Shown in pieces: positions 5,458 to 45,785 of a DNA stretch of 64,000 nucleotides. Each line of letters begins with the position of its first letter. The first letter of the stretch is position 1. A model generated the notes under the pieces. That model was not told the origin of the DNA. It ran no database searches and saw nothing but the letters and a program-made list of their open reading frames with translations. A program made the position numbers and the translations under genes. This stretch comes from an uncultured Planctomycetota bacterium (GTDB lineage: Bacteria > Planctomycetota > Planctomycetia > Isosphaerales > Isosphaeraceae): the NCBI GenBank assembly GCA_963823665.1, contig CAWGMQ010000004.1, positions 1,792,001-1,856,000 of the forward strand, written 5' to 3'.

Positions 5458-9226
<3,769 letters not shown>

Positions 9227-9360
9227 TTTAGTTTGGCTGTCAGTTGTTTGAAGCGGAATTGGCCACAAATTGCGATGCACTAACACTCTACAGCCAATTC
9301 CAGAAGCCGGAAATGGACACAAATGGGACAAGAATCGGACAATAATTAGCCAATCGTCTC

Positions 9361-10766
9361 ATTCGTGGGATTCGTAAGATTCGTGGTTCCTCTTCTCTTC
9401 GCCGCGCCACACAAGCAGATTCGACCACGAATCGCACGAATTACACGAATCAGAAATTACTGGAAGGATGATCGCATTGCGCGCTCCAAGCGCCGATGAT
9501 CGCTTACACCTCGTCCTTGAGTGGGCTCTACACCGTTGCTCGCTTCTTCCTCCCCTTATTCGTGAGATTCGTCCGATTCGTGGTTCCTCTTCTCTTCGCC
9601 GCGCCACACAAGCAGATTCGACCACGAATCGCACGAATTACACGAATCAGAAATTACTGGAAGGATGATCGCATTGCGCGCTCCAAGCGCCGATGATCGC
9701 TTACACCTCGTCCTTGAGTGGGCTCTACACCGTTGCTCGCTTCTTCCTCCCCTTATTCGTGAGATTCGTCCGATTCGTGGTTCCTCTTCTCTTCGCCGCG
9801 CCACACAAGCAGATTCGACCACGAATCGCACGAATTACACGAATCAGAAATTACTGGAAGGATGATCGCATTGCGCGCTCCAAGCGCCGATGATCGCTTA
9901 CACCTCGTCCTTGAGTGGGCTCTACACCGTTGCTCGCTTCTTCCTCCCCTTATTCGTGAGATTCGTCCGATTCGTGGTTCCTCTTCTCTTCGCCGTGGCG
10001 CGGACCAGCGCCGACCACGAATTAACCGATTCGGACGTCGCCAGAACGATCATCGTACGATGCGATCGTATACAAGCTCACCATGTGCGCCGAAGTTCAC
10101 CAGCAGACCGAGACGATATCCGGTTGCTTTCAGGTAGTTATGAACCTGCGACCGGTGCTCGTCGGTCAACTCTGAGACAGCCTTGATCTCCACGATGACC
10201 TTATCGAAACACATAACGTCGGGTTCATATTTCTTCTTCAGCGTGCGGTCCTTGTACCTCAGCTTGAGCTCCGCCTGGGAGACGAACGGTATGCCCCGCA
10301 ATTCAAGCTCGATCTCGAGACATTCCTGATAGACGGGCTCGAGAAACCCACATCCCATGTGGTTGTACACCTCAAAGCACGCCCCGACGATCGCGTACGC
10401 CTCTTCTTTGAGCAGGATCTCCATCGTTGCAGCCCTTTCTCTTCGCTCATTCGTGGTTCCGCTTACCCGCGCCGTGCCACACGAGCGCCAGCGCCCCGAT
10501 CGCAAACTCGGTCGTGTGAATATACCGGAGACTCGACCACGAATCTCACGAATCTCACGAATCTCACGAATCAGAGATTATTGCAAAGATCATCGCATAT
10601 CGCGTTCGACGCGCCGATGCTCGCTTACGCCTCGTCGTTGGGCAGGATCTACAGCGTTGTTCTCGTCTTCGTTCCTTTATTCGTGAGATTCGTCAGATTC
10701 GTGGTCCAACTCCCCCTGGCCTTTCGCCGAACAGGCTCGACCACGAACTTCACGGATCTTACGAAT
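9361..10766. repeat. cluster of 9-bp-periodic inverted repeats (CACGAAT-NN)n / (ATTCGTG-NN)n, including a 197-bp tandem repeat of about 3.2 copies
   Basis: ATTCGTG arms start at 9361, 9558, 9755, 9952 (period 197), 10449 and 10679. CACGAAT arms start at 9424, 9621, 9818, 10014, 10536 and 10740. Confidence 0.95.
10050..10424 (-). CDS. GxxExxY protein (PD-(D/E)XK-like nuclease fold)
   Basis: MEILLKEEAYAIVGACFEVYNHMGCGFLEPVYQECL...PDVMCFDKVIVEIKAV...QVHNYLKATGYRLGLLVNFG; literal GFLEPVY motif. Confidence 0.92.
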   Translation of the reverse strand: MEILLKEEAYAIVGACFEVYNHMGCGFLEPVYQECLEIELELRGIPFVSQAELKLRYKDRTLKKKYEPDVMCFDKVIVEIKAVSELTDEHRSQVHNYLKATGYRLGLLVNFGAHGELVYDRIVR

Positions 10767-10869
10767 CAGCCGTTGCGGGCGCGATCGTCGAATAGGCCGC
10801 TCCCCGCGCCGAGATTCCCGGCAGGCCTTTCCTCTGCACCAGAGCCTCTCGTCCTTTCTTGGGGCGGGC

Positions 10870-10896
10870 AATTGTGCCGCAGGCTGCGGCACAATT
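10870..10896. terminator. perfect 13-bp hairpin downstream of pglW (terminator or REP-like)
   Basis: aattgtgccgcag-g-ctgcggcacaatt, about 35 bp past the pglW stop. Confidence 0.4.
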
Positions 10897-10931
10897 CTCC
10901 CTGGGGTAGGTAGCTGGCTCGTGGTGGTTGT

Positions 10932-13900
10932 TCACTCATCCCCGCTCCTTTCAGAGGAGCCACCCCCATTCGCCCGATGCTTGTTCCGCAGCCAGCTCTC
11001 AGGTATCCGCACGCGCTGCCCCGGGCTAAGCGTCGGCACCACTTTCCCATCCAGCAGTGCCTGATGATCGCCCGCAACAAGCACCCACAGCCCAGCAATC
11101 CCATCGCGCCGCCCAATCTTGTCCCGCAAACTCTCGAGCAGCCCCATCTGCCCATAACGCGCCAAGAGCCCCGCATAAATCATGAGCATCGGCTTCTTCA
11201 CCGCATGAAGTCGCGCCTCAACAATCGGCATCGCGCGCTTCACCAGCACCATCAACCGATCCCACTTCCCATCCCCAGGATTCGCATCCGCGCTCACGAC
11301 CGCATCCCACTTCGCCCCAGCCTTGTCAACAACTTGGCGCAGCGCATCGAGAAACAAAGCTTCAAAGTCAACCAATTCGACCGGAAACCGCCGCGCAAGC
11401 TCCTGATAAGCACACTGGTAGCACTTCGGATTCACCAGCAGGACGGTGAACGACCCCTCCTTGATCCCGTGCTTCAGCCGGTCCTCAAACTGCCGCGCAT
11501 CCGCAATCTCCGGAGTGACCTCGATCTGGGTATCCTCGCCAGTCGCCATTCCCGTCGACTCGCGCACCGCCGATGCACTCGCACTCGAATACGTAAACGA
11601 CTCGGTCAACCGGCTCTTGTAACCGCCAACACCCCGCAAGGCAGGGTCCCACTCAAAATCAAACCCAGCATCGCGCAGCAACACATCCAGCTCAGGCGGC
11701 CCCGGCAGCTCGGCCGCTTCCGGGTACCGACTCTTCACGCGCTCACGAATCTCCTGCACCGTGAGCGAAGCCACCCCATAAATCGCCCCCTGCGAGAGCT
11801 TGAGCGCCCGCGCCGCCTCCATTCCCCTGGGATAAAACTCATGCCTGCTCGAAAGCGCCGAATGACACGACGCCAGCGCCGCCAGCCGCACCAGCCGTGA
11901 GTCGGCAATCAGCGGCGAGCCGTCCGGCGCAGAAAGGTCGCGCAGTCGCTCAAGCGCGCGCTGCGGCGGCACCAGCGGGTCTTCCCCCGCCAGCTTGTCG
12001 CCAATTTCCCCCAGTCGCAGCGCAAAAGCCGCCAGCTCCGGACTGAGCGCCACCAGCACCCGGGCACCCTCTCGCCGCACGTGAAACCGCGGCTCGCGCA
12101 TCGACCGCTCAACTTCGACCGCCGCCCGAACAACAGCCCGGGCAAGCGCCGTTCGCCGCGGCTCATCCTCGACCGACCCCCGCGCAACCACCAGCGCCTC
12201 GGCCAGCTCCGGCACGAGCATCACGCCACCAGCCGACCCCATAATCCCGGAGACATCCGTGCGCAGCCGCGTGATCGCGGGCTCCTTGGCCCAGCGAGCT
12301 TGATAAGTGCCCACAACCTGGCTCAGACGTCCTCGACTGAACTTGCACAACTGCGCCACTTCAGCCTGGCTCGGCCACGGCTTTCCGGTCTCACCGCCCA
12401 GACACAGAAGCACGCTCATCACGCCGGCCGCTGGATCAGGCCCGTCCGTCCGTGCCTTGGGCAGCAAGCGCCCGGCCAGCAAGTCAATACTCAGGCTCGC
12501 CGTATCAGCCTCTTCTCCTGGCGCAGGTGCTTCATCCACCACCGGCGGTCCGCTCGACGCGGAACCAGCAGGCGAGCCAAGCCGTTCGCGCAGAATCCGG
12601 ACCGCGGTCACAATCTCGCGCCGCGTCTTGTTCCCCACGCCGCGCAGCCGCGCGAGCCGGCGAATCGGCACCGTGAGCAAATCTTCGACCGTCAGCAGGT
12701 TCGCACGATCGAGTGCGTTCGTCGCCCGCGTGCCCAGGCCCAGCTCGTGCACCTGGGTATCAAACGTCGCCCCCGCAAGCAGCGACCGCAACGTCTCCTC
12801 GTCGACGTGGTCCGAGAGCGTGCCGGGTTGTTCGATGTTCTCAAAACAGTGCCGCCACTCGGTGAGCATCTCCTCGGCGTTATCGAACCGCTGCGCGACA
12901 TTGCGCCGAAACGCCTTGCGAAAAAACCCGGTCAGCCGCTCGCGAAGACTCGCGTCAAACAGCTCGGCGTCAATGGTGATCTCACAAGTCATGTGGCTTG
13001 GGTCCGTAGTGCCATCGCCCCATCGCGGCAGGGTCCCTGTAGCGAGCTCGTGCAGCGTCGCGGCCGCGGCATAGCGCTCCGCATGAAGGTCCCAGCGCGG
13101 AGGCTTGCGCAAAGGGAGCAGGGGGTCGAGGTAGCCCGTGGTCCCCGCTCGAATGTTCTCGTTGGGCATCCGCGCCAGCGAGAAATCAAAGAGCATGAGA
13201 TGAAGCGTATCGCTCCGTCCGACCATTCCTACGGCAATGTTATCCGGCTTGATGTCGCGATGAGCGATACCCTGCTCCTGGAGGTAATTCAGAACATCGA
13301 GCAGGTCCACCCCGAACCGCTGGAGGTGGTCGATATGCAACCGTCCCTCCTTGCGCAGCCGCTGCCCCAGAGTCTCGACCCGTTTCTCATTCTTGTCGAC
13401 AAGGACCGGCCGCATCAGAAAGCCCGCGTGCTCGCCGATCGGAGCCTTGTCGCAGAATTCGACAATATGCTGATGCCGCAGTTTCTGGAGCACCTCGGCT
13501 TCATTCTGAATGCGATCGTTCTGCTCGGGGTCGTTCGCCGCCTTGAGCACATAATCCTGCCCACCGCGTTCGACGAGCAGCGCAATGGAGCAGGCACCAT
13601 GCCCCAACCGCCTGATCACCGTCAACCCGCCCGGGAGCAGATCGCCTTTCTGAGCTTGTTCAGGATCGACGACGTACTGATGTTCGGGTGCGGTCAGCTC
13701 GTCCTCGACGCCCTCGAGCAGCTCCAGAAAATCCGCGACCGAATCAATCCGGCTCGTGATCTCCGGATGCGTCGCAAACCGGACCAGGTCCTGAAGATTC
13801 TGACCGGCGCCGTTCATGACCGAGCTGATTTGCAATCCCTTGGTTTCACGAAGCTTGTTGGAAAGCTCAAGCCCGCTCGCCGCGGGCGGCTCGGCCGAGA

Positions 13901-15191
13901 ACACGTGATAGGCGATCGCACCCAGCGAGAAAACGTCGAGGTGCTCGCCCACGCTATTCTCGTCGGCGATGGCCTCCGGCGCCATGTACGCGGTCGTGGC
14001 ATCCTCGACCAGCCTGTCTACGTGCGATGTCGCCGCAATCGCGCCAGAGACCTTCGATGTCGACGTGCCTTCCCGATATCCCACCTGCCAGTTCAGGATC
14101 TTGATTTTTGGATGAGACGTCGACGGATCACGTACCAGAATGCTCTGGGGGCAGAGCCCTCGATGAACGACTTTTTTATCGTGTGCGAAACGGACGACTT
14201 CCGCGATCTGCCTCATCAGGTCGAGGCGTGCGCCGACGTTCAAGGAATCTCGCTGCTGAGATAAGAAGTGGTCAAGCCGAAGTGCCTGCGGATCATGCTC
14301 GAAGATGAGCGCAGGTCCCAGCTCGTGTTCGGAGAAACCATAAATTCGCAGGATCGCCGGATGCTGAAGTGATTCCAGCAACTGGAATTCTCGCAATGCC
14401 GCACGTTCGAGCTTGCCCCGGTCCTCCTTGCTTGACTCGGTTCGCACGTGGTACACCCGCACGCGGCGTTTGATGTCCTCCAGTCGCACGTGGGTCGCGA
14501 GCCAGTCCTGGTAGCCCGGTCCCTCGCCGAGAATTCGTTCGAGAAGATAGTCGCTGACTTTTCGATGGCGCTGGCATGGGCGGATCCCCGCTTGATCCAT
14601 CGCCTGGCTGACCATCTTGGCCGTCGGCTGGTTGTGCGTCCCTTTCAGATACCGCTCGAGCCCCGGGCATTCCCGGTTCTTGATCGCTGCGAGGATGCCG
14701 GGGCGACGCTCAACATCGCCGGCCCGTTCCCGATCGCGCAGGCAAACCCGGTAAGCCGCCGTGCCCTTGAGGTCGAGCTGCAACCCAGGCGCCGAGCAAA
14801 AGACCAGATGCTCGATGAACGGAACGGTTCCCTTGTTCTTGCAAGCTCGCTGGCGCTGAAGCAGCGCACGCAGCTTCTTCGCCTTCGCGTTGGCGGCGAG
14901 CACGGGATTGTCCGAGGTGATCAACCGGCCCTCGGTCTCCCACGACCAGGTCCCCGCGTCGCCAAAGAGCCGCCCCGGCCTGCTCTTGATCTCAACGAGA
15001 AAGAACCCTTCCGGCGTGAATGCCAGAAAGTCAACCTCATTGACACTTCCGTCATCGGCGATGAACTCGAAGTTGCTCCAAGCCTGGTAGGGTTCATGAG
15101 CCGGGAAGCCCGCCCGGACAAACTCGAGCGCTTCTCGTTCCCACGGAAACCCAGACTCCGCGACCTTGATCCAGTTCTGCCCGGCTGCCAT
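10932..15191 (-). CDS. pglW: BREX type 2 Ser/Thr kinase PglW (NERD + two kinase-like domains + RNAP alpha-CTD-like)
   Basis: WSNFEFIADDGSVNEVD..VEIKS (NERD), VVHRGLCPQSIL, AHRDIKPDNI..LFDFSL, TRATNALDRANLLTVEDLL; upstream of pglX. Confidence 0.93.
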   Translation of the reverse strand: MAAGQNWIKVAESGFPWEREALEFVRAGFPAHEPYQAWSNFEFIADDGSVNEVDFLAFTPEGFFLVEIKSRPGRLFGDAGTWSWETEGRLITSDNPVLAANAKAKKLRALLQRQRACKNKGTVPFIEHLVFCSAPGLQLDLKGTAAYRVCLRDRERAGDVERRPGILAAIKNRECPGLERYLKGTHNQPTAKMVSQAMDQAGIRPCQRHRKVSDYLLERILGEGPGYQDWLATHVRLEDIKRRVRVYHVRTESSKEDRGKLERAALREFQLLESLQHPAILRIYGFSEHELGPALIFEHDPQALRLDHFLSQQRDSLNVGARLDLMRQIAEVVRFAHDKKVVHRGLCPQSILVRDPSTSHPKIKILNWQVGYREGTSTSKVSGAIAATSHVDRLVEDATTAYMAPEAIADENSVGEHLDVFSLGAIAYHVFSAEPPAASGLELSNKLRETKGLQISSVMNGAGQNLQDLVRFATHPEITSRIDSVADFLELLEGVEDELTAPEHQYVVDPEQAQKGDLLPGGLTVIRRLGHGACSIALLVERGGQDYVLKAANDPEQNDRIQNEAEVLQKLRHQHIVEFCDKAPIGEHAGFLMRPVLVDKNEKRVETLGQRLRKEGRLHIDHLQRFGVDLLDVLNYLQEQGIAHRDIKPDNIAVGMVGRSDTLHLMLFDFSLARMPNENIRAGTTGYLDPLLPLRKPPRWDLHAERYAAAATLHELATGTLPRWGDGTTDPSHMTCEITIDAELFDASLRERLTGFFRKAFRRNVAQRFDNAEEMLTEWRHCFENIEQPGTLSDHVDEETLRSLLAGATFDTQVHELGLGTRATNALDRANLLTVEDLLTVPIRRLARLRGVGNKTRREIVTAVRILRERLGSPAGSASSGPPVVDEAPAPGEEADTASLSIDLLAGRLLPKARTDGPDPAAGVMSVLLCLGGETGKPWPSQAEVAQLCKFSRGRLSQVVGTYQARWAKEPAITRLRTDVSGIMGSAGGVMLVPELAEALVVARGSVEDEPRRTALARAVVRAAVEVERSMREPRFHVRREGARVLVALSPELAAFALRLGEIGDKLAGEDPLVPPQRALERLRDLSAPDGSPLIADSRLVRLAALASCHSALSSRHEFYPRGMEAARALKLSQGAIYGVASLTVQEIRERVKSRYPEAAELPGPPELDVLLRDAGFDFEWDPALRGVGGYKSRLTESFTYSSASASAVRESTGMATGEDTQIEVTPEIADARQFEDRLKHGIKEGSFTVLLVNPKCYQCAYQELARRFPVELVDFEALFLDALRQVVDKAGAKWDAVVSADANPGDGKWDRLMVLVKRAMPIVEARLHAVKKPMLMIYAGLLARYGQMGLLESLRDKIGRRDGIAGLWVLVAGDHQALLDGKVVPTLSPGQRVRIPESWLRNKHRANGGGSSERSGDE

Positions 15192-43072: not shown

Positions 43073-44285
43073 AGAGGGCGCGGTTGGTCGTCGCCGGATT
43101 CCTCAACAAGGCCTGGATTTTTCGGTACGTTGGATGCGCAGACACGCTCTCAGGAATTTCGCCGGTCTCGCCTCATTTGATTCGCCATCGCGTACTCCTC
43201 CGCAAGATCGAATCCAATGTCGGCGGTTGGATCGATGATCTTGAACGCCGCGTACATGAGGCAGACCACAGTTCGCTTGACGGCGGTCTGTAGGTCCATA
43301 TTGGCATTATCCGCGGGGCACGGGGTTTTTCCCAGGCGGGGCTATCAACGGAGCAGGCTTACGCCGCTTTCACTGGGATCGTGCAATGTCGTCTCGGCGG
43401 GTCATGCTCGCAGCCATCGTCGGCCGCGATTAATCAGCGAACGGGAATGCCCCTTCGCGGAGAGCGAAGGGCGACAATGTTCTCGGCCGGCGCGTTGAGC
43501 AGAGGTGTCACTGGATGGCCTCACTCGTGGCGGCGCGGCAGGGCCCGTTGGCACCCGTCTGCGCCTTGAGTGCATGGCGCCGACGGAGCCGGGGGCGCGT
43601 GGACCGAACGGACCAACTGGATGCGGGAATCGTGCCGGGCGTCTTTGCCGACTCTTTAGCCGCATTGCGCAAACCGGGGTTGCGATCGAGTTCGTCGTTG
43701 CATCCGTTGCAAGCCGGATAAAAATCCCAGGTTTTCTGGTCGACGAAATGGCCGAATCGCGAAAGTGAGCCCATAATTTACATAGCTCAGTCTCGATCGC
43801 TGACACTGGAGTCGGCGCGGGGCATCACACCACCCATGTCTCTGGAACCGGGAATGACTGCTTCGTTTGCTCGAGCGCGTGCTCGAGGATCTCAGCTCTG
43901 CCTGACCACGCCTGTGCCGTGGGCAAAATGGGGCCGGACTGCCCTTGGGAACTGGGCTCGGTGCACGACGAAATCGCCCCGAGTTTTGAGCTGTGCCGAG
44001 CGTGGGACGGGTGTGGGCCACGGAGAGGGTGAGTCTTCACCGGGTGGGCCGAGGGATCACGAAGCGCGGCTGGTGGCGTTATCCTCTTTGGCTCTCAGCA
44101 TTTCCGTGCTGCTTCAGGGTGTTCGGGCCAGCGATCGGACGGGGTTCACGTCAGCGAGCAAAATGGGACTTTTTTGGGGTCAATCGTCTCATTTCGTCTC
44201 ATTTTGTCTCATCCACTTCTACTTAATTGGAGCGTGCGAGACATGTCTGGAGAGCGTAGCCACGGAATGCAGCAAGGGCAGTTAG

Positions 44286-45785
44286 CTCACGCAAAGGCGC
44301 AACGGCGCAAAGAAGAGGGGCTGCCCGAAAGAAAACAAGCGACAACCGGACACTCCCGGGCACGCTGAGGGCGATGACCGGCGTTCCCTTAATGCTTACG
44401 GGCTAAAGAGCATCGTCAAGTCTACAAAACGAACTCTGCGGCGAAGCAGGGGAGGCGGGCTAGTGAAATCGAACATGAAGATGGGCTCACGCAAAGGCGC
44501 AAAGGCGCAAAGAAGAGGGCCGCCGTAAAAGAAATGAAACGGCCAAGGCGGGATTCTGATATCGAAGACGAAGATGAGTTCACGCAAAGGCGCAAAGGCG
44601 CAAAGAAGAGAGGCTGCGCGAAAGAAAACAGCGACACGCGGACACTCCCAGGCACGCTGACGGCGATGACCGGCGTTCCCTTAATGCTTACAGGCAAAAG
44701 AGCATCGTCAAATCTACAAAACGAACTCTGCGGCGAAGCAGGGGAGGCGGGGTAGTGAGATCGAGTATGAAGATGAGCTCACGCGAAGGCGCAACGGCGC
44801 AAAGGAAATGGGGGGCGTCCATGAACAGAACCGGCACGTGGACACTCCCAGGCACGCTGACGGCGATGGCCGGCGTTCCCTTACTGCTTGCAGGCAAAAG
44901 AGCACCGTCAAATCTACAAAACGAACTTTGCAGAGAAGCAGCGGAGGCGGGCTAGTGAGATGGAACATGAAGATGAGGTCACGCAAAGGCGCAAGGGCGC
45001 AAAGAAGAGGGGCGCCGTAAAAGAAATGAAACGGCCAAGGCGGAATTCTGAGAATCGTAGACGAAGATGAGTTCACGCAAAGGCGCAAAGGAAATCACAT
45101 GCATCAATGAAAAGAACTGGCACGCGGAGACGCCCAGGCACGCCGACGGCGATGGCCGGCGTTCCCTTACTGCTTGCAGGCAAAAGAGCACCGTCAAATC
45201 TACAAAACGAACTTTGCAGAGAAGCAGCGGAGGCGGGCTAGTGAGATGGAACATGAAGATGAGGTCACGCAAAGGCGCAAGGGCGCAAAGAAGAGGGGCG
45301 CCGCTCAGGGAATCACTCGGCCGAGCCGGACTTCTGAGATGGAAGACGAAGACGAGTTCGCGCAAAGGCGCGAAGGAAATCGGGTGCGTCCATGAACAGA
45401 ACCGGCACGTGGACGCTCCCAGGCACGCTGACAGCAATGACCCGCGTTCCCTTACTGCTTACAGGCAAAAGAGTATCGTCAAATCTACAAAACGAACTCT
45501 GCGGCGAAGCAGCGGAGGCGGACTAGTGAGATCGAGCATGAAGATGAGCTCACGCAAAGGCGCAAAGAAGAGGGGCACCGCTAAAGGAATCACTCGGCCG
45601 AGCCGGACTTCTGAGATGGAAGACGAAGACGAGTTCACGCAAAGGCGCAAAGCGCAAAGAAGATCAGGTGCCTCAATGAAAAGAATCGGCACGCGGACAC
45701 GCCCGGGCACGCTGATGGCGATGACTGGCGTTCCCTTACTGCTTACAGGCAAAAGCGCATCGTCAAATCTACAAAACGAAATCTG
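44286..45785 (+). repeat. array of ten TCACGCAAAGGCGCAAAGGCGCAAAG-type direct repeats with recurring long and short spacers
   Basis: Repeat starts at about 44286, 44486, 44579, 44778, 44978, 45072, 45264, 45357, 45549 and 45634. Confidence 0.92.

Follow-up and report, generated by a model that had tools for sequence, protein, structure and literature searches.

What kind of element separates two adjacent genes of a defence operon by a nuclease gene and an array of hairpin repeats? The question is raised by a 64,000-nt stretch of DNA (hereafter the window; G000:C4:1792001-1856000) from the 16.46-Mb genome (G000) of an uncultured planctomycete, in which pglW and pglX of a type 2 bacteriophage exclusion (BREX) system flank a gap occupied by a gene for a small protein of the GxxExxY family and by repeats whose inverted arms consist of the 7-nt word CACGAAT. 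An earlier note, made from the letters of this DNA alone, had read these repeats as internally deleted, non-coding copies of a GxxExxY nuclease cassette and suspected a mobile element with the logic of repetitive extragenic palindromic (REP) doublets, REPINs, and their REP-associated tyrosine transposases (RAYTs). Our analysis indicates that the word-armed nuclease cassette is likely a member of a family of insertable cassettes that has not been described before. The best-supported reading is that of an insertable cassette family with deletion derivatives resembling miniature inverted-repeat transposable elements (MITEs), amplified locally by tandem duplication.

Proteins of the GxxExxY family (PF13366) are widespread and have no assigned function. 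A passage of PMC3424549 gives the function as unknown, a passage of PMC8934634 mentions the GxxExxY/PF13366 family incidentally, and incidental mentions were all that we found in the published literature on GxxExxY, PDDEXK_3, TIGR04256, and PF13366. We found no published description of cassettes of this kind, including in the literature on intervening sequence (IVS) proteins and four-helix-bundle proteins. What is new here is the deletion-derivative link between gene and repeats, the selection figures, and a series of BREX-2 junctions with two cargo families.

Gene-less units as probable deletion derivatives of the nuclease cassette

Comparison with pglX of relatives sets the start of this gene at 9229, so that the intergenic gap spans 9230-10931 (1702 nt); repeat modules fill it from the first base past the pglW stop codon (Table 1). 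The gap contains 1 intact GxxExxY (PF13366) gene, 4 complete gene-less units, 1 degenerate unit, and a truncated end piece, with CACGAAT words at a 9-bp period in all modules. In the orientation of the gene, the degenerate module, which holds a 13-bp hairpin (~10866-10896), is followed by unit B, the 78-nt linker, the cassette (10457-10014), a 35-nt linker, the tandem units A3-A1 with 36-nt linkers, the solo arm, and the 52-nt end piece. The gene itself is bracketed by ACCACGAAT (10014) and ATTCGTGGT (10449-10457). All coordinates and counts given in the earlier note for units, arms, and gene hold, its ungapped hand alignments (39/50, 40/50, and 15/23) were reproduced exactly, and ATG-GAG of the gene is indeed replaced by GTG-TAG or CTG-TAG in the units.

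The relationship between units and gene was assessed by local alignment scored against 500 dinucleotide shuffles. Within the unit interiors, the 5′ 75 nt match the cassette with z-scores of 14.9 for unit A, 18.8 for unit B, and 26.7 for a copy on contig C3 of the same genome, and none of the 500 shuffles reaches the score in any of the three comparisons. The homology covers the gene leader and the first 15 codons (cassette positions ~12-80), and a 50-mer slid along the cassette scores 39 at the place claimed earlier, against 20 at the next best one (mean 12.9, sd 3.5). By contrast, the 3′ 32 nt are insignificant when taken alone (z 0.8-1.3; 86-145 of the 500 shuffles reach the score), so that, of the similarity asserted at both ends of the gene, only the 5′ part stands by itself. 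The best local match of these 32 nt is the stop-codon region for two of the three units (A and B), and the 3′ match in register from the arm, counted by eye, is better against the gene copy with a full 3′ arm in G001, a genome of the same genus.

Three units that have diverged to 71-85% identity have interiors of exactly 107 nt and lose the homology at cassette position 79-80, which bears out the proposal of a single junction in diverged copies; the stretch absent from the units corresponds to cassette positions ~81-402 (window ~10056-10377). The dispersed unit on contig C3 shares this junction, and a TAC to TAA change at codon 10 is common to 5 of the 7 related units. Furthermore, a 247-nt unit in G001 retains ~44 codons, including the GxxExxY motif, and has a different junction, indicative of a second, independent deletion event. 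These alignments support the conclusion that the gene-less units are internal-deletion derivatives of the GxxExxY cassette, and the relation that defines MITEs, non-autonomous copies that are internal deletions of the gene-bearing one, is apparent here. Of the evidence so far that ties gene-less hairpin repeats to gene-bearing cassettes, that from this locus is the clearest, given that the repeats carry the gene leader and 15 codons, have one common deletion junction, and are spread in two species.

The three identical tandem units would have arisen later by local tandem duplication. Tandem Repeats Finder detects in the A units a period of 197 bp with 3.2 copies and 99% matches, the A1 and A2 copies being identical at 197/197 positions and A2 and A3 at 182/197. 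The linkers between the units (36 or 78 nt) are conserved, and the repeating module is, accordingly, the unit plus its linker. The 78-nt linker is also found beside the dispersed unit on contig C3, and the 52-nt end piece also terminates an array on contig C4 of G001.

Table 1. Features of the pglW-pglX gap and its borders (window coordinates)
Feature	Coordinates	Strand	Remarks
pglX start	8732..9229	-	ATG at 9229, MLNRSALLNDLQ...; frame shifts between 8807 and 8732
Last linker, solo three-word arm, and 52-nt end piece	9309..9423	-	Linker 9388-9423; arm 9361-9387; end piece 9309-9360
Tandem gene-less units A1-A3	9424..10013	-	9424-9584, 9621-9781, 9818-9978; linkers 35-36 nt; GTG-TAG replacing ATG-GAG
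3′ arm of the gene, degenerate	10014..10049	-	One good word; three words retained in the G001 copies
GxxExxY/PDDEXK_3 gene, 124 aa	10050..10424	-	Motif G26-E29-Y32; predicted catalytic D69, E79, K81
5′ arm of the gene and 24-nt purine-rich leader	10425..10457	-	Single word 10449-10457; leader 24/24 identical in both G001 copies
Long linker (78 nt), unit B to gene cassette	10458..10535	.	83-86% conserved in two G001 copies
Gene-less unit B	10536..10705	-	4 + 3 CACGAAT words; 107-nt interior; CTG-TAG replacing ATG-GAG
Degenerate gene-less module	10740..10931	-	Directly past pglW stop; degenerate left arm, right arm GATTCGTAAGATCCGTGAAGTTCGTGGT; repeat families D3, D5, D6
pglW (BREX type 2 Ser/Thr kinase), upstream neighbour	10932..15191	-	NF033442 BREX_PglW, 1615 bits

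Filled and empty pglW-pglX junctions

If the cassettes are insertable, the same operon junction can be expected to be filled in some genomes and empty in others. We surveyed 11 BREX-2 pglW-pglX junctions, all located through PglW homology only. Word-armed cassettes occupy 5 of the 11; 3 are empty, 1 (L205) holds another open reading frame (ORF), and 2 are uninformative (G015, with other repeats and a contig end, and L207). The empty junctions, for which the earlier note had suggested looking in relatives, are those of G019 (14 nt between the genes), G014 (an ATGA overlap), and G037 (~40 nt). Among the filled ones, five families of words and two of cargo are represented: PF13366 genes with CACGAAT words in the window, with CACAGAG in G024, and with CGCAAAG in L204, from a Planctomycetota metagenome-assembled genome (MAG) with a 74% identical PglW, and PF05635 genes in G026 and in L206, from a Hydrogenedentales MAG. 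Five different cassettes at a junction that is empty elsewhere imply repeated insertion or replacement, and this comparison of junction sequences supports cassette insertion. With five cassettes and two cargo families at one operon junction, the survey amounts to a natural series of filled and empty sites, which makes the insertability of the cassettes, and the agent responsible for it, directly testable. A further possibility is that the cassettes disturb defence operons or that such operons tolerate them.

In L204 (3653-4091), the GxxExxY gene is split by a frameshift, its two frames matching PF13366 positions 2-44 and 46-117.

Arms, words, and dispersal across genomes

The cassette is not confined to the BREX locus. 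A pattern of three CACGAAT words at a 9-bp period has 37 matches in G000, against 0 for the reversed control pattern, and ~20 of the 37 sites lie outside the window locus, as units, as solo arms, or as hairpins whose loop is 36 nt long. Such arms occur in 7 of 41 related genomes (G000, G001, G012, G022, G040, G024, and G034), with 0 matches of the reversed control everywhere, in a patchy distribution that spans two families of the class. In G001, two other loci hold the composite of unit, gene, and unit (with 86% and 82% identity), alongside further units and arrays, and units with the same junction are present at no fewer than five loci. Thus, the dispersed copies that the earlier note called for exist, both on contig C3 and in a second genome of the genus. 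G001 has no BREX match and none of its composites adjoins BREX; together, the two genomes contain the composite in three unrelated contexts.

Across the three composites, identity is 94% in the coding sequence, 24/24 in the leader, 89-100% in the arms, 72-85% in the unit interiors, and 66-86% in the linkers. On these figures, the interiors evolve about neutrally, whereas conservation of the arms exceeds the neutral level. The window gene and the two G001 copies, which are 95-96% identical to it in protein, differ with dS of ~0.2 and dN/dS (ratio of nonsynonymous to synonymous substitution rates) of 0.10-0.16, indicating that the protein is maintained by purifying selection.

Inverted arms made of periodic words turned out to be common around other GxxExxY genes, a point that the earlier note had proposed to check. 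Inverted repeats of 22-42 nt surround 12 of 12 further GxxExxY genes in G022, G040, G024, and G012, and a crude inverted-repeat scan of 32 genes recovered arms, whose periods are 8, 9, or 10, at ~22 of them while missing ~10, some of which have arms further out. The words differ between members of the family. The paralogues within G000 have word arms of their own (CGCAGAT, GAAAC-AAGG, GCGAAGG, and CACGAAA), and homologues with 60-72% identity from other genera have CACGAAT (G012), CACGAAA (G014, G015, G017, and G021), or CRCGGAA (G008); among CACGAAT, CACGAAA, and CRCGGAA, the changes of word hit every copy in both arms together. When 10 word types were mapped on the tree of 27 labelled proteins, 9 changes sufficed, which is the minimum possible, compared with 16-22 changes (mean 19.4) for shuffled labels, none of which reached 9 in 500 trials. 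Because relatives share labels by descent, this link between word and clade demonstrates co-inheritance and is no proof of recognition. Of 64 pairs at the variable positions of the arm spacers, 38 are Watson-Crick, whereas shuffling of the partners predicts 29.6 and attains 38 in 40 of 2000 trials; this partial complementarity weakly favours conservation of the words over conservation of pairing.

A compact protein with a nuclease fold

The product of the cassette gene is a clear member of its family (PF13366, E 6.8e-42, 143 bits with a cut-off of 22; TIGR04256, E 2.3e-41, 140.8 bits with a cut-off of 35). All 32 homologues from these genomes share G26, E29, E39, D69, E79, K81, and N110, and at least 90% have Y32. 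The protein thus has both the GxxExxY motif and the residues predicted to be catalytic in PD-(D/E)XK nucleases, and the core of its AlphaFold model (predicted local distance difference test, pLDDT, 93.5) is restriction-endonuclease-like. The nearest solved folds of the model are Cas4 SSO0001 (4ic1; Foldseek E 4.5e-5, TM 0.61, ~100 residues), lambda and alkaline exonucleases, and Hjc. These Cas4 and RecB-family enzymes are its best structural matches and share the predicted D...E-x-K catalytic residues; unlike them, the GxxExxY protein is half the size, and no PDB chain was matched by sequence at E up to 1. PADLOC and PHROGs gave weak matches only (E 0.005-0.013). In a Pfam search, the cassette gene matched PF13366 only and no transposase domain; the HUH-Y1 enzyme that characterizes RAYTs is not found.

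How the cassettes might spread

The mechanism that we prefer, tentatively and at somewhat less than even odds, is that the gap was filled by an inserted array and that the nuclease reads the arm words and starts copying. On this view, the inverted arms present clade-specific 7-nt words that the GxxExxY nuclease is predicted to recognise; cleavage at these words would start copying, and host repair would then copy the cassette and its gene-less derivatives into new intergenic sites. A more far-reaching proposal, which we regard as possible but doubtful, is that the cassettes form a new class of mobile DNA in bacteria, where a ~120-aa PD-(D/E)XK nuclease resembling Cas4, with no transposase or recombinase, reads clade-specific 7-nt words in inverted arms, propagates its own cassette and the MITE-like derivatives, and prefers tight defence-operon junctions such as that between pglW and pglX of BREX type 2.

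Several observations weigh against this reading. The correspondence between words and protein clades can be explained by co-inheritance alone, and the nearest folds of the nuclease, Cas4 and lambda exonuclease, are end-processing enzymes rather than sequence-specific ones. The gene and CACGAAT arms occur together in G000, G001, and G012, whereas G022, G040, and G024 contain such arms (17, 14, and 3, respectively) without the cognate gene: their 9, 3, and 1 PF13366 matches have no CACGAAT arms within 1.5 kb, and, of 23 PF13366 matches in these three genomes and G012, only the 72% homologue in G012 is near such arms. Word arms, in no case built of CACGAAT, also enclose 8 of 9 examined genes of the four-helix-bundle family PF05635, which makes the nuclease dispensable for this architecture. 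In the window, the arms of the gene itself are degenerate, with a single word in the 5′ arm; the gene is placed between hairpins rather than inside one in G012, G024, and L204; and arrays with arms in one orientation only exist. Unequal crossing-over alone could account for the three tandem copies. Inspection of single cassettes revealed no target-site duplication or sharp element end, and conservation extends past the arms into the linkers, including the one beside the dispersed unit, so that the arms are not clean element ends.

Finally, comparisons of three orthologous sites between G000 and G001 yielded no clean empty site: at two of the three, other genes spanning kilobases distinguish the genomes, and at the third both genomes have an array, though not of the same size. 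In G000, a distance of 9.5 kb that contains other genes separates the flanks of the G001 C4 array, and the flanks of the C5 array of G001 are scattered; other genes occupy the site of the C3 unit in G001, and that of the C8 hairpin has an array in both genomes. The arrays sit at synteny breaks between the two genomes. Among public sequencing runs, 6 DNA runs from soil metagenomes, and no RNA run among those listed, contain this sequence; four runs contributed only window-identical contigs of 150-290 nt and no joint that skips a cassette, which is uninformative on excision or expression.

Insertion sequences and MITEs represent autonomous elements and their internally deleted, non-coding derivatives with common terminal inverted repeats. 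Similarly, terminal inverted repeats are common here to the gene cassette and the deletion derivatives, and deletions recur (161-nt and 247-nt classes). Unlike insertion sequences, the cassette encodes PF13366 only, with no transposase domain, target-site duplications were not observed, conservation continues into the linkers beyond the arms, and tandem arrays are common. REP and REPIN elements and the RAYT transposase are treated in PMC3116915 and PMC3337134. In both systems, a gene present in one or a few copies is flanked by inverted palindromic repeats, gene-less intergenic hairpin doublets are more numerous, each gene clade has its own type of repeat, and a patchy distribution goes along with long persistence; indeed, the both-armed gene-less units in the window and on contig C3 conform to the REPIN arrangement of a gene flanked by doublet-forming inverted repeats. 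In contrast to REPINs and RAYTs, the enzyme here has a PD-(D/E)XK rather than an HUH-Y1 fold, the arms are arrays of 7-nt words at an 8-10 bp period rather than single REP hairpins, the gene-less units retain a remnant of the gene whereas REPINs retain none, and several word families coexist in a genome. Of the RAYT/REPIN-like mobile element of the earlier note, the insertable cassette with deletion derivatives survives, but the conserved linkers, the orphan CACGAAT hairpins, and the PF05635 cassettes count against a simple RAYT/REPIN logic.

Alternative explanations

PMC4990558 concerns 23S rRNA IVS elements in which an S23p/PF05635 ORF is enclosed by inverted repeats and which are called selfish. 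By analogy, the cassettes could act at the RNA level: the arms would form a stem in the transcript that is cut by RNase III, releasing the cassette mRNA, so that insertion into an operon would be tolerated, the nuclease would have a selfish or defensive role, and spread would proceed by another route. Consistent with this possibility, the RNA of the A unit is predicted to fold into one long hairpin (-68.1 kcal/mol, z -5.8, 0/200 shuffles), every module of the gap is co-oriented with pglW and pglX, and PF05635 genes, annotated as "23S rRNA intervening sequence protein", with like arms replace the GxxExxY cassette at the junctions of G026 and L206. However, it is the words, rather than the pairing, that appear to be conserved, solo arms and one-orientation tandem arrays exist, and both the clade-specific words and the route of dispersal are left unexplained. 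Although 23S rRNA IVS elements are likewise small ORFs in inverted repeats, the cassettes differ from them in lying between protein genes, with a nuclease-fold PF13366 cargo and deletion derivatives in arrays; Rfam matches in the window are limited to meaningless ones to MIR5284 (E 0.35), with no rRNA. We consider this RNA-level explanation unlikely.

Integrons contain arrays of small-ORF cassettes in which neighbouring ORFs are set apart by imperfect palindromes that are ~60-140 nt long and variable in sequence. Mobilisation in trans by a structure-specific recombinase, or by another host or mobile enzyme, would work along these lines, with the arm-linker-arm hairpins acting as attC and the GxxExxY and PF05635 genes as interchangeable cargo. 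Such a scheme accommodates two unrelated cargo families with a common architecture and junction, the hairpin-gene-hairpin layout, the orphan hairpins, the conservation of the linkers as hairpin loops, and hybrid modules at L061 and L042 that join the arms of two word families. It fits poorly with the words, which follow the protein clade perfectly, and with the gene-less units, which retain gene-derived sequence in the fashion of MITEs; furthermore, the palindromes here are made of periodic words, in contrast to those of integrons, and single cassettes stand alone in ordinary intergenic regions. No candidate recombinase turned up beside the arrays, and no integrase or attI elsewhere in the analysis, although no search was aimed at any of them. 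Mobilisation in trans, too, seems improbable.

The identity of the host operon itself suggests another option. The adjacent pglW and pglX, with profile matches to NF033442 and NF033451, respectively, identify the system as BREX type 2, and the nuclease or four-helix-bundle gene could have been selected as a modulator of this defence, e.g., of the expression of the pglX methyltransferase, with the repeats in a regulatory role. The occupancy of 5 of the 11 junctions, found through PglW homology alone, agrees with such a role, as does the damage to pglX, which is frameshifted in the window and has an in-frame TAG in G014. The pglX gene of the window is called frameshifted because the matches of the NF033451 model fall on three separate ORFs (tblastn frames -1 and -3). 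Nevertheless, three junctions with tightly coupled genes are empty, the G001 copies are located away from BREX, other members of the family reside in unrelated contexts, and cargo and words differ from junction to junction, which renders a function as a BREX accessory quite unlikely. Least probable of all, and barely credible to us, is an immobile old gene that was duplicated locally, with copies decayed by deletion, an array built by unequal crossing-over, and distant copies left by old segmental duplications: the tandem identity of A1 and A2, the linkers that belong to the repeat, and the array that differs in size at one orthologous site would fit, but not the five cassette families at a junction empty in three genomes, the patchy arms across two families of the class, or the presence of one composite in three unrelated contexts.

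The split pglX of the window (5458-9229, minus strand) comprises three ORFs, with the frameshift at 8807/8732 and a second frame overlap near 6729-6960, and is either a pseudogene or an assembly error. In G014, the pglW open frame is only 323 aa long.

Other arrays and associated repeats

A second array in the window (44184-45750) is built of CGCAAAGG words at an 8-bp period, the word family of the cassettes in G040 and L204. All of its arms point in one direction, its tandem periods are 93, 200, and 286 bp, and tblastn detected no GxxExxY gene or remnant within it. A repeat of ~250 nt (…GGCGTTATCCTCTTTGG…TCTCAG…) located ahead of a left arm and a purine-rich leader occurs at window 44000-44250 and in L045, L058, L069, L041, L056, and L059; the word family beside it varies (CGCAAAG in the window, CACGAAT elsewhere), and it has no Rfam match.

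The hybrid modules of L061 and L042 (G000:C8:1406402-1409425 and C3:544096-547119) are 216-bp tandem modules in which a CGCAGAT-word arm is joined to a CACGAAT-word arm. In L099 (G001:C4:408436-411871), four 152-bp modules with a left arm only are followed by two 200-bp modules of unit plus linker; this locus has an inverted duplicate at G001 C4:4374602-4378037, and the orthologous site in G000 (L063) contains one hairpin only. At L117 (G000:C10:2489700-2500300), AAAAGGTGTCAGGAACC is found at both borders of the 9.5-kb segment that replaces the G001 array (near 560, 10000, and 10060). Group II introns (RF02005, E 9e-35 and 4.5e-40) adjoin solo CACGAAT arms at L057 (G000:C5:7268-10291) and L066 (G000:C11:550706-553729), which may reflect intron homing next to hairpin structures. 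Finally, in L086 (G040:C10:46355-49378; ~1500-1530), a solo three-word CACGAAT arm abuts the start of an ordinary gene for a secreted protein, and the last word provides its ATG (ACGA-ATG).

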